Below are positions 5,454 through 11,320 of a stretch of 11,320 bases of DNA, in pieces (within the stretch, counting starts at the first letter, position 1; every line of letters starts with the position of its first letter). This DNA is from a virus. A program made the position numbers and the translations under genes. The stretch lies in UHGV virus genome UHGV-0170512; one strand, 5' to 3'. The notes beneath the pieces are model-generated. The model did no database searches and was not told where the DNA came from. It saw only the letters and a program-made list of their open reading frames with translations.

Positions 5454-5487
5454 GGAGTTTACTCACATCTGACAAAATCAATATAAA

Positions 5488-5509
5488 CAGCCCCTCCGGA
5501 GAGGGGCTG
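5488..5509 (-). terminator. GC hairpin, likely Rho-independent terminator for minus-strand transcription (possibly also stops the convergent plus-strand ORF)
   Basis: CAGCCCCTC-CGGA-GAGGGGCTG, 9-bp perfect stem; on the minus strand it is followed by TTTATATTGATTTTG. On the plus strand it sits 35 nt after the 5118..5453 stop but has no U-tract. Confidence 0.4.
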
Positions 5510-5900
5510 GAGAGTGGCGCTATGTGCCATTGCATGGTGCCGGGTGCCTCCCGGTGAATTCAGTACCAGCACCTGAATCCGCGATTATCCCATATACCTA
5601 CTCGCTGATTGCCCCTCCGCACAGGGGGATTCACCATGCCAGTTTCTTTTAACAAACTCCCCGCAAACCAGACAACAGTCAACCGCCTGAATTGTGAAGT
5701 ATTTAAAAATTTCTCCCGCTAACTGATACCCGGCTAACAGTCTGGCGTTTTCTTTTTCAGCAACGGAAAAGCAACAACCACCACACCTGCCACCAGCACA
5801 CCGTCAGCCAGCACTGACATTATCCGGCTGCTGCAATGCCATTCACAAAAACAGTAAGCAATCACTTTTTACCGTAACAGGTGATAATCCAGATATGTAT

Positions 5901-6364: not shown

Positions 6365-6441
6365 TGGCGCGTTGTACTGGATTCGAACCACTGACCGATT
6401 GCTTAGAAGGCAATTGCTCTGTCCTGCTGAGCTAACAACGC
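6365..6441 (-). tRNA. tRNA-Arg (anticodon UCU)
   Basis: Minus strand GCGTTGTTAGCTCAGCAGGACAGAGCAATTGCCTTCTAAGCAATCGGTCAGTGGTTCGAATCCAGTACAACGCGCCA: 7-bp acceptor stem, D arm GCTC/GAGC, anticodon loop CTTCTAA, T loop TTCGAAT, encoded CCA. One G:G mismatch in the T stem. Confidence 0.8.
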
Positions 6442-6454
6442 AGAATACCGATAA

Positions 6455-6531
6455 TGGACCACCATCGGGGACCCGAACTCCGCGCAACCAGCTTCGAAAG
6501 CTGGCGCTCTTTCCTGATGAGCTAATGGCGG
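6455..6531 (-). tRNA. tRNA-Arg (anticodon UCG)
   Basis: Minus strand CCGCCATTAGCTCATCAGGAAAGAGCGCCAGCTTTCGAAGCTGGTTGCGCGGAGTTCGGGTCCCCGATGGTGGTCCA: acceptor stem with one G:U pair, perfect anticodon stem CCAGC/GCTGG, loop TTTCGAA, encoded CCA. Non-canonical T loop TTCGGGT (G at position 58) and one A:C mismatch in the T stem. Confidence 0.7.
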
Positions 6532-6538
6532 TATGTGA

Positions 6539-6614
6539 TGGTGGCCCTTGCTGGATTTGAACCAGCGACCTGGCGATTATGAGTCGCTCGCTCTCACCAC
6601 TGAGCTAAAGGGCC
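6539..6614 (-). tRNA. tRNA with CAU anticodon (Ile2-type, ileX-like, or Met)
   Basis: Minus strand GGCCCTTTAGCTCAGTGGTGAGAGCGAGCGACTCATAATCGCCAGGTCGCTGGTTCAAATCCAGCAAGGGCCACCA: perfect acceptor and T stems, anticodon loop CTCATAA; closely resembles the E. coli ileX tRNA as I recall it. Confidence 0.85.
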
Positions 6615-9951: not shown

Positions 9952-10230
9952 TTACCTCCAGATGCGTTGCTGGAATGTGCGGGACGGACGCGGTGGGCGT
10001 TCGGAGTAAGGCAATCTGACTGAGATTATCCAGTGACGGTAGTCGAGGCTAAGGGCTTTTTTAACCTCGTATCCGCGCCTGCGGTAACACTGAATTATCC
10101 ATTCAGCCTGCTCTTCAGTGCATGGAGGATGCTGGAACCAGTCTGATTTGAATGCGTGAAAACGCCGTCCGCACCTGCTGGCAAAGACGGCAGAATCATT
10201 AGAATTGTGTAATTTGGTATCGTGCGCCAT
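9952..10230 (-). CDS. Hypothetical protein, rem-like by position (between hok and the DUF968 gene)
   Basis: Track ORF 9952..10359 trimmed to the internal ATG at 10230 because a terminator hairpin (10301-10329) lies inside the longer ORF; 92 aa. Start and identity uncertain. Confidence 0.4.
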   Translation of the reverse strand: MAHDTKLHNSNDSAVFASRCGRRFHAFKSDWFQHPPCTEEQAEWIIQCYRRRGYEVKKALSLDYRHWIISVRLPYSERPPRPSRTFQQRIWR

Positions 10231-10300
10231 CGGTTGTCTCTGCTGGCGCAGCAGGTGCCAGTTGTTCAGGCTGGCGTGCGAATTGTAAACCAGAATGCCA

Positions 10301-10329
10301 GGAAAAAACAAAACCCGCCGAAGCGGGTT
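10301..10329 (-). terminator. Rho-independent terminator downstream of hok
   Basis: Minus strand AACCCGC-TTCG-GCGGGTT followed by TTGTTTTTTCC; about 70 nt after the hok stop. Confidence 0.55.
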
Positions 10330-10397
10330 AAGTGCGGGTGCGTTGAGGATGCCTGACACATCAGAGGTGGCGAGGGATTTCTCCCCCGCCTGGTCTC

Positions 10398-10553
10398 TTA
10401 CTCCTCAGGTTCGTAAGCTGTGAAGACAGCGACCTCCGTCTGGCCGGTTCGGATTCGTACCTCGCAGAGGTCTTTCCTCGTTACCAGTGCCGTCACTATG
10501 ACGGTTAAACAGATGACGATCAGGGCGATTAACATCGCCTTTTGCTGCTTCAT
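10398..10553 (-). CDS. hok: Hok-family type I toxin (HokD/RelF-like), 51 aa
   Basis: Hand-translated, below the ORF-track size cutoff: MKQQKAMLIALIVICLTVIVTALVTRKDLCEVRIRTGQTEVAVFTAYEPEE. Single TM segment and Hok/Gef signature; SD AGGAGAAG 6 nt upstream of the ATG. Confidence 0.85.
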   Translation of the reverse strand: MKQQKAMLIALIVICLTVIVTALVTRKDLCEVRIRTGQTEVAVFTAYEPEE

Positions 10554-10789
10554 AGCCTGCTTCTCCTTGACCTTTCGGTCCGTAAGAGGCTAATCTCTAT
10601 GTGTCGCATAGATATGGCCTCAGATTAATGTTAAGCGTCTTGCAGGACGCGTAATGTTAACTGGGGCTTTTCTCTATCTGCCTTTTGGTGTTCATGCCTG
10701 AGGCAGATAGCCTCAAGCACCCGCAGCAATTCTACTTAACTCACGTCACCTCGCCAATATGAAATCAATCAGAAAGGTGATCCATAAAA

Positions 10790-11320
10790 TCACTCCTTCT
10801 CTTCTTTTCCGTAGTGGAGTTGGCCAATTTTGATAAGAGGGCGCCCCTGAGATTTGCGGTGTAGATTGGTATCGCGCAGAGAATACACACAGCCACAATA
10901 TTCCTGCTGATAGAATTTTTCGCGCTTGCTGATTTCAATCATACGGGACGAGCCGCCCTGCTTGCGCCAGTTATAATCCCAGTACACCATACCCGGATAA
11001 TGCGCAACAGCTCGCCGCCCACACTCGTTAACCTGCTGCATATTTTTCCAGCGTGAAATGCCCAGTGAACTGCTGATCACACTGAAACCATTTTCAGCAG
11101 CGTACAACGCTGTCCGCTCAAAACGCATGTCAAAACACATGGTACAACGGATCCCCCTCTCAGGCTCCCATTCCATTCCTTTGGCACGTTCAAACCAGTT
11201 GTCGGTGTCGTAATCAGCATCGATAAACGGCACGCCGTGTTGTTCAGCAAAGCGAATATTTTCATCCTTACGAATTAAATACTCTTTCTGAGGATGAATG
11301 TTCGGGTTGTAGAAAAAGAT
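10790..11320 (-). CDS. Cys-motif protein, tentatively QueH/DUF208-like (epoxyqueuosine reductase family); 5' end beyond window
   Basis: Track ORF 10790..11233 (GTG) continues stop-free in frame to the window edge (..[42 protein letters not shown]..). Motifs FYNPNIHP, C-x2-C (CTMC) and YCGCVYS match my recollection of DUF208/QueH; the family call is not verified. Confidence 0.5.

Follow-up and report, generated by a model that had tools for sequence, protein, structure and literature searches.

The stretch of DNA analyzed here (the window) comprises 11,320 nt of the virus genome UHGV-0170512. On its minus strand, at 10553..10398, the ORF list contains hokD, which encodes a 51-aa toxin (MKQQKAML...EPEE) that matches the Pfam family HOK_GEF (PF01848) over residues 6-47 with an E value of 1.2e-23 and a score of 82.9 bits (cut-off, 22). 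By this match, the product is a toxin of the Hok/Gef family, whose members are ∼50 aa long with an N-terminal transmembrane helix, and it is 100% identical to the HokD of a K-12-type relE-hokD locus (L088). In addition to hokD, the minus strand contains a sense promoter, a tac element, a 5′ stem-loop, a mok Shine-Dalgarno (SD) sequence and ATG within a Sok-target hairpin, a helix formed by an anti-SD box and the hok SD, a 3′ fbi element, and a terminator, and the plus strand contains a convergent predicted Sok-like promoter and RNA. A first-pass annotation of this DNA had reported a 19-codon ORF, two hairpins, and a plus-strand promoter upstream of hok, and all of these features are present in the sequence and the ORF list at the positions it gave.

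The surroundings of the locus are the nin/Q-lysis region of a lambdoid prophage. Downstream of hok lies rem/DUF968 (YdfU), and farther on, matching phage records annotate a RusA Holliday-junction resolvase, a Q antiterminator, and lysis and terminase genes. Directly upstream of hok is a gene for QueH, an epoxyqueuosine reductase (10790-11320, minus strand; PF02677, E 1.7e-52), so that a queuosine-pathway gene is found in a lambdoid prophage that also encodes three tRNAs. These tRNA genes (anticodons Arg-tct, Arg-tcg, and Met-cat) and a match to the STnc100 sRNA (132 bits) are found at 5479-5668 and 6365-6614 on the minus strand, between the Q-like antiterminator region and the lysis genes, an arrangement typical of Stx-type and related lambdoid phages.

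The region upstream of the hokD coding sequence matches the Rfam profile RF01794 on the hok strand (10551-10722) with a score of 108.3 bits, compared with a gathering score of 59, and an E value of 2e-24. Model positions 1-157 are all matched, as expected for a conserved hok mRNA leader. RF01794 is named "sok antitoxin," and its matches in the window and in locus L138 (502-654) both follow the sense strand of hok and mok up to the hok AUG. At K-12 hokC, this strand is the one matched, and the annotated SokC is encoded on the other. Because the profile matches the hok strand at both loci, the model describes the hok mRNA leader, and the strand that it reports is that of hok. Use of the Rfam "sok" match as direct evidence for an antisense RNA was therefore rejected, as it is evidence for the leader only.

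To compare the individual elements, an R1-type reference was used, a locus on an IncFII plasmid that encodes the same Hok as the R1 sequence used as the query. In this alignment, the 5′ end GG(G/C)(U)GCUUGAGGC, the first stem-loop, AGCCCC, and GAGG are found at homologous places, and the same is true of the mok start codon, TAGCCTCTTAC, the start codon of hok with its SD, and a 3′ sequence that can pair with the 5′ end. The first-pass annotation had proposed that this hok copy keeps its regulatory elements and had called for an alignment to hok/sok, hokD, and other chromosomal hok loci; the full-length RF01794 match and the element-by-element homology with both the R1-type and hokC loci bear this proposal out. 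That annotation had also made its reading depend on conservation of the upstream elements, and the mok SD and ATG proved to be invariant in 57 aligned loci.

A consensus scan of 10200-10850 predicted only one sigma-70-like site, TTGGCG-17 nt-TAGAAT on the minus strand (10757-10729; 9/12 matches). This predicted hok mRNA promoter lies ∼7 nt upstream of the predicted mRNA 5′ end, and its −10 hexamer aligns with a TATAAT upstream of K-12 hokC. The predicted full-length hok mRNA is ∼420 nt long (10722-10303, minus strand) and runs from a 5′ GGGUGCUUGAGG, placed by the start of the RF01794 match and by alignment with the 5′ GGCGCUUGAGG of the R1-type locus, to an intrinsic terminator (10303..10329, minus strand), which was found in a scan as a 7-bp stem (10329-10312) followed by a T run. 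The 420-nt RNA is predicted to fold with a minimum free energy (MFE) of −175.5 kcal/mol (z −7.8). In both the MFE and centroid structures, nt 1-12, a tac-like 5′ element (10711..10722, minus strand), pair with nt 375-387, an fbi-like 3′ element CCUCAACGCACCC (10336..10348, minus strand) that is complementary to the 5′ end and whose counterpart in the R1-type alignment is the 3′ GAAGCGCC region. The full-length transcript is thus predicted to be closed by tac/fbi pairing. The pairs of this helix are invariant among hokD-type loci, and covariation is uninformative for it.

When the RNA was truncated from the 3′ side in silico, the thermodynamic model predicted that the 5′ end re-pairs locally; with one truncation length, its partner becomes nt 54-60, and the mok SD is left unpaired in the MFE structure. 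In this model, such tac/ucb refolding appears at only some truncation lengths; it is of the kind described for R1 (summarized in PMC9841398).

The two leader hairpins that had been noted in the sequence correspond, by RF01794, folds, and alignments, to two elements of the hok leader, its conserved 5′ stem-loop and its Sok-target hairpin. The 5′ stem-loop (10674..10710, minus strand) represents the first RF01794 helix and contains a 9-bp inverted repeat (CTATCTGCC at 10710-10702 and GGCAGATAG at 10682-10674); one of its pairs shows a compensatory A-U to G-C change in four loci, and another changes from G-C to G-U in 30. It is followed by a long hairpin of the sense RNA, complementary to the body of Sok (10617..10667, minus strand), in which a 5′ CCCC (10663-10666, nt 57-60) pairs with the mok SD in the manner of a ucb-like anti-SD and in which three pairs show compensatory changes in three loci. 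At its tip, this hairpin exceeds the Rfam consensus by a 16-nt insertion, gcguccugcaagacgc (10633-10648, minus strand), and that of K-12 hokC by ∼18 nt, and the Sok hairpin is thereby lengthened. The phage loci L020, L033, and L081 have instead a shorter, different hairpin with compensatory changes.

The mok ATG itself is held in a hairpin, TCTATG/CGACA/CATAGA (10612-10596, minus strand), to which, judged from sequence and fold, the 5′ tail of Sok is predicted to bind (sokT). No YUNR U-turn motif was seen by eye in its 5-nt loop, CGACA. This hairpin is the hypervariable part of the locus, and each variant, when folded separately, keeps a hairpin. Fixed-column covariation was uninformative as evidence here, with only 74.6% of the cells paired, because the variants differ in register; retention is seen from the separate folding of the variants. 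Nor are the hairpin and the repeat significant on their own, as the window contains 26 perfect 6-bp hairpins compared with 17.5 in dinucleotide shuffles, which is not unusual, and seven 9-bp inverted repeats compared with 1.3, which is modestly unusual; the shuffles therefore give no support for the hairpin and weak support for the repeat. These small features rise above chance because of homology, namely the RF01794 match, the invariant mok SD and ATG, and the keeping of the hairpin among variants.

Nearly all of the variation among loci that are elsewhere ∼94-100% identical falls within ∼25 nt around the mok ATG hairpin (10596-10620, minus strand; alignment columns 108-132). E. coli genomes contain a median of two and a maximum of 11 copies of the locus. 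The variability of the hairpin would fit a diversification of Sok/target specificity that avoids cross-talk among co-resident prophages.

The leader ORF within this region, MRHIEISLLRTERSRRSRL (10609..10550, minus strand), has 19 codons, with its ATG at 10609-10607 and its TGA at 10552-10550, and overlaps hok, whose ATG is at 10553-10551, by 4 nt in the sequence ATGA. It is preceded by a mok-type SD, GAGG (10618..10621, minus strand), which occupies alignment positions G102, A103, G104, and G105 and is invariant in the 57 aligned loci, including the R1-type locus; the homologous SD motif of R1 mok is a site of loss-of-function mutations (PMC9841398). The mok ATG is invariant in all leader-bearing loci, and the start codon of the 19-codon ORF is homologous to that of mok in R1-type hok and of K-12 mokC, in agreement with its initial description as mok-like. 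Inside the leader ORF, an anti-SD box CCUCUU (10584-10589) pairs in the MFE structure with the hok SD AAGGAG (10563-10568), forming a helix (10563..10589, minus strand) that encloses a GACC-GAAA-GGUC hairpin. The box TAGCCTCTTAC is conserved between the window and the R1-type locus. In short, the ORF has its own GAGG SD and an ATG at homologous, invariant positions and crosses the helix that sequesters the hok SD, as a mok-type ORF does.

The extensive overlap between mok and hok that is classical for this family is absent from the window, where the two ORFs share 4 nt only. Such an overlap is not a true defining feature, as it is dispensable in R1 and as spacings of 56, 57, and 58 nt are found within the family, across genera as well as between loci whose toxin is identical. 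In R1, Le Rhun et al. found that the first 19 mok codons, the same number as in the window leader, precede the hok start and are required, that stop codons placed before the hok SD abolish Hok, and that translation past the hok start is unnecessary, so that hok is still translated when R1 mok is cut off beyond that start (PMC9841398). Because the window leader crosses the helix and stops on the hok ATG, a role in coupling is its natural reading, and the coupling arrangement proposed in the first-pass annotation is consistent with the R1 mutagenesis (PMC9841398). The window ORF would thus be a naturally occurring mok of minimal length, and it agrees fully with the accepted mechanism of coupling.

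We also considered whether translation of hok starts at its own strong SD (AAGGAG) with no need for the upstream ORF, the 19-codon ORF being incidental and Sok acting only through mRNA cleavage. The hok SD has a predicted unpaired probability of ∼0.5 and is thus not fully masked, and K-12 hokD, which keeps only the SD and a 14-nt leader, is still annotated downstream of relBE. Against this, the leader ATG and SD are invariant in leader-bearing and R1-type loci while neighboring bases vary freely, and the anti-SD/SD helix is conserved as paired at 99.7% across 57 loci. Translation of hok independently of the leader is therefore very improbable, and we favor coupling through the mok-like ORF.

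Covariation was assessed for the whole predicted structure across the 57 distinct aligned loci, in which 23 pairs had changed on both sides compared with 2.9 in shuffles and at most nine in slid controls. The structure used for this count was drawn from the window sequence itself, the aligned sequences are ∼94% identical, most pairs never vary, and several of the double changes come from the single R1-type outgroup.

On the plus strand, a promoter for a Sok-like RNA is predicted at 10567..10596, with TTGACC (10567-10572), an 18-nt spacer, and TAATCT (10591-10596). The consensus sigma-70 scan of 10200-10850 placed this plus-strand site below threshold, and its −10 hexamer matches TATAAT at three of six positions. 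Its position is supported by homology, as TAATCT lies at the same place as the experimentally mutated −10 of sokW, TAACCT (primers YO-421/422), and the site is just upstream of the position homologous to the annotated SokC 5′ end. The Sok promoter hexamers of the R1-type locus presumably lie in a region homologous in position to TTGACC-18-TAATCT as well. From these alignments, the plus-strand promoter suggested in the first-pass annotation is a credible candidate. Two classes of Sok promoter were found, that of the window (TTGACC-18-TAATCT) and a majority class (TTGCCT-17-TAACCT).

The RNA predicted from this promoter is ∼75 nt long (10603..10677, plus strand) and consists of a 5′ tail, a long hairpin, and a U-rich tail. 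Its ends were transferred from the annotated K-12 SokC through an alignment to hokC/mokC/sokC, and the start that results, 10603, is 7 nt after TAATCT. The segment 10603-10682 is predicted to fold with −33.8 kcal/mol (z −5.1) into a single-stranded tail, a long hairpin, and a U-rich tail. Based on this homology, we infer that an antisense RNA is expressed from the window allele.

To place the 19-codon leader among its relatives, the distance between the mok and hok start codons was determined in 83 loci with identical HokD, comprising the window, 80 loci of a phage-contig collection, and two loci of phage records. A spacing of 57 nt, which puts mok in frame with hok and gives a 70-aa product, was found in 67 of the 83 loci; the 56-nt spacing, with a 19-codon ORF ending on ATGA, was found in 12 that include the window; one locus has a 58-nt spacing and a classical 68-aa overlapping mok; and three have no leader, two of these being relE-hokD forms like that of K-12. 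Indels of 1-2 nt, located in the hairpin loop and the GAAA hairpin, account for the spacing differences; in the window, the frame of classical mok ends at a TAG that directly follows the hairpin. Because the sampled hok genes all begin with ATGAA, a 56-nt spacing always stops on ATGA.

When one genome per species was considered, the 56-nt form was present in five other lineages, including E. ruysiae, E. whittamii, an Erwinia species, and Kalamiella, and the 57-nt form was predominant in Photorhabdus, Pantoea, and hokC-type loci. A view of the short ORF as a one-off degenerate mutation was rejected, given its presence in 12 of 83 loci with identical HokD and the 56-nt spacing in other lineages. 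A view of the in-frame majority form as new was also rejected, since the MG1655 annotation has mokC and hokC sharing a stop codon. The R1 spacing is 58 nt by the coordinates in PMC9841398, and the IncFII plasmid locus with a Hok identical to the R1 query has a spacing of 57 nt, in frame. In the papers that we could search, no description of the 19-codon form was found; a preprint on Hok diversity contains no analysis of mok frames and explicitly leaves Mok aside (10.1101/2025.08.07.668861), and the T1TAdb paper contains no analysis of mok frames. The 19-codon form differs from the others by a minor change of frame whose consequence can be predicted.

The locus that encodes the same toxin in K-12, hokD (relF) of the Qin prophage, provides a direct comparison (protein identity, 100%, through L088). 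K-12 hokD has the same downstream neighbors as the window, rem and ydfU/DUF968, and the same 3′ UTR with the fbi-like element and terminator (K-12 matches query positions 224-487). The two loci differ upstream. In K-12, relB-relE lie immediately upstream of hokD, with the end of relE 71 nt before it, whereas the window has QueH; homology to the window begins 14 nt before the hok ATG, the leader being replaced by relBE. As a result, K-12 hokD lacks the tac element, 5′ stem-loop, mok SD and ATG, Sok target, Sok promoter, and Sok RNA, whereas the window has a full leader of 170 nt. In DH5alpha, relB-relE are directly upstream of hokD, and the alignment contains no leader homology. The window, with QueH upstream and a complete leader, is thus not of the K-12-type relBE-hokD operon form, and the statement in the first-pass annotation that K-12 hokD lacks the regulatory elements was correct, as only the last 14 nt before the ATG are shared. 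Judged from these alignments, the hokD locus of the window is untruncated, and hokD of K-12 derives by truncation from an intact prophage hok/sok locus.

The hok leader has been replaced a second time, independently, in L079, a phage locus on an IMG/VR contig in which unrelated sequence takes the place of the leader, homology runs from the hok SD onward as in K-12, and a 29-codon ORF ends on the same ATGA.

Among characterized systems, a close homolog is hokW-sokW of Sakai prophage 5 (Sp5), an Stx2 phage. It is also prophage-borne, at a similar lambdoid site, and the two leaders are near-identical outside the hairpin; the 5′-end primer used for hokW matches sister loci of the window exactly (PMC8621323). 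Takada et al. (2021) reported that hokW-sokW is a working type I toxin-antitoxin system in which a mutation of the sokW −10 abolishes protection, that it is partly dependent on RNase III and Hfq, and that HokW is produced on induction and raises phage release ∼2-fold (PMC8621323). HokW is 44% identical to R1 Hok (PMC8621323). Several differences from the window were found. In Sp5, a spacing of 57 nt puts the leader ATG in frame with hok, whereas the window has a 56-nt spacing and a 19-codon ORF; the sequence of the Sok-target hairpin differs, and the sokW probe YO-592 has no match in the window; the Sok promoter is TTGCCT-17-TAACCT in Sp5 and TTGACC-18-TAATCT in the window; and the C terminus is ..VFVDYESEK in HokW (from primer YO-560) and ..VFTAYEPEE in HokD.

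The archetype of the family, R1 hok/mok/sok (parB), is matched by the same Rfam family, RF01794, and has the same elements in the same order and position, namely tac, the 5′ stem-loop, the mok SD and ATG, TAGCCTCTTAC, the hok SD, fbi, and the terminator. With its 70 codons, R1 mok starts 58 nt from hok and overlaps it out of frame, whereas the window leader stops on the hok ATG; the Sok hairpin of the window is extended by 16 nt at its tip; and the R1 locus is on a plasmid, whereas that of the window is in a prophage. K-12 hokC/mokC/sokC has a leader 81% identical to that of the window; the position of the hok promoter, the mok ATG, and the anti-SD/SD helix are shared, and RF01794 matches the two loci in the same way. 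The SokC annotated in MG1655 is 59 nt long, starts 8 nt inside mokC, and lacks the hairpin-tip insertion found in the window. Other differences are that mokC is in frame with hokC, with a common stop codon and a spacing of 57 nt rather than 56 nt, and that the hokC locus is flanked by IS186.

Based on the elements found and their homology to these systems, we conclude with considerable confidence that positions 10303-10757 of the window (minus strand) are a complete hok/mok/sok-family type I toxin-antitoxin cassette of a lambdoid prophage, carried, to judge from its neighbors, in the nin/Q region. The presence, homology, conservation, and predicted folding of the elements were computed here, and the mechanism that follows is drawn from homology with R1 hok/sok and Sp5 hokW-sokW, from which we infer transcription of both RNAs, translational coupling, toxicity, and biological role. 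A hok mRNA of ∼420 nt would be transcribed from 10722 to ∼10303 and would be inert through tac-fbi pairing and through pairing of the mok SD with the upstream CCCC box. Slow 3′ trimming would remove fbi, after which the 5′ end would refold and the mok SD would be exposed. At this stage, a short, unstable Sok-like RNA from the plus strand (∼10603-10677) would pair with the hairpin and the SD around the leader ATG, blocking leader translation and probably triggering RNase III cleavage. If Sok were lost, translation of the 19-codon leader would open the CCUCUU/AAGGAG helix masking the hok SD, and ribosomes would terminate on the UGA of AUGA, leading to initiation at the hok AUG; HokD would then insert into the inner membrane and kill or lyse the cell.

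Toxicity of the HokD coding sequence has been reported in a preprint (10.1101/2025.08.07.668861), and inactivation of the Sok promoter in R1 was toxic or unobtainable without suppressor mutations (PMC9841398). The role of the cassette could be to help lysis at prophage induction, as for hokW-sokW, or to maintain the prophage. Because hok points in the same direction as the early-right and late genes of the phage, we speculate that read-through transcription at induction could supply hok RNA and interfere with the convergent Sok promoter, an idea that would fit the RecA-dependent loss of sokW (PMC8621323).

In a different reading, the cassette would be structurally intact and functionally silent, a relic whose elements are inherited with the prophage, whose Hok is never released in nature, and whose 2-nt-shorter hairpin, the source of the 19-codon ORF, is a neutral or mildly disabling indel. 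The predicted Sok promoter is weak by consensus, the window-type leader is the minority form (12 of 83 loci), and chromosomal hokA, hokB, and hokC have been reported to be unable to mediate post-segregational killing (summarized in preprint 10.1101/2025.08.07.668861). However, all of the elements are intact, with an invariant mok SD and ATG; the exact leader is common to hundreds of genomes at 99-100% identity; the 56-nt spacing arose in unrelated hok lineages; hokW-sokW, the close homolog, is active from a single prophage copy (PMC8621323); and the truncation of R1 mok described above leaves hok translation in place. We consider a silent relic unlikely and retain the complete cassette, with the homology-based mechanism, as the preferred reading.

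The full-length locus was found in ∼3,800 of 5,426 complete E. coli genomes, and the window-type leader region was found at 99-100% identity in up to ∼700 records, SK1144 being one of those at 100%. HokD that is 96-100% identical to that of E. coli is also encoded on two tiny contigs, L099 and L104, whose assignments are Acinetobacter idrijaensis (275 bp) and Xanthomonas pisi (431 bp), and a 97%-identical locus is present in the record of Actinobacillus phage vB_Apl-pPE4 (H38). These matches are probably E. coli contamination or misassignment and not an indication of host range. In the annotation of such loci, RefSeq E. coli records label hokD and have no feature over the leader, mok, or Sok region, and some phage records, such as that of phage Evi (L001, 1735-1890), label the 51-aa hok ORF itself "MokW protein."

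The recurrence of three spacings in independent lineages led us to consider whether the mok frame is an evolutionary dial on toxin output or isoform that, together with the variable hairpin, yields differently tuned, orthogonal prophage copies; we regard this idea as doubtful. If the three frames were not equivalent, termination and reinitiation at ATGA might give a lower or tighter Hok output than an in-frame fusion. In that case, the window would represent the minimal setting, in which termination is followed by reinitiation, and the frame and the hypervariable hairpin could reflect selection for orthogonal, differently tuned copies among prophages that share a cell.

The cassette is complete and ordinary. 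It belongs to a known system (hokW-sokW and hokC-sokC) that is present in thousands of E. coli genomes, its arrangement is not unusual for the hok family, and the family, the prophage location, and the close homolog hokW-sokW have already been published. The importance of the finding lies mainly in annotation, because the blank over the leader in RefSeq and the "MokW" labels in phage records mean that thousands of genomes have no annotation for the regulatory half of a very common prophage toxin-antitoxin cassette. The locus implies no new mechanism; its 19-codon leader parallels in nature the stop-codon experiments in R1 and lends modest comparative support to the view that only the transit of ribosomes to the hok SD matters.
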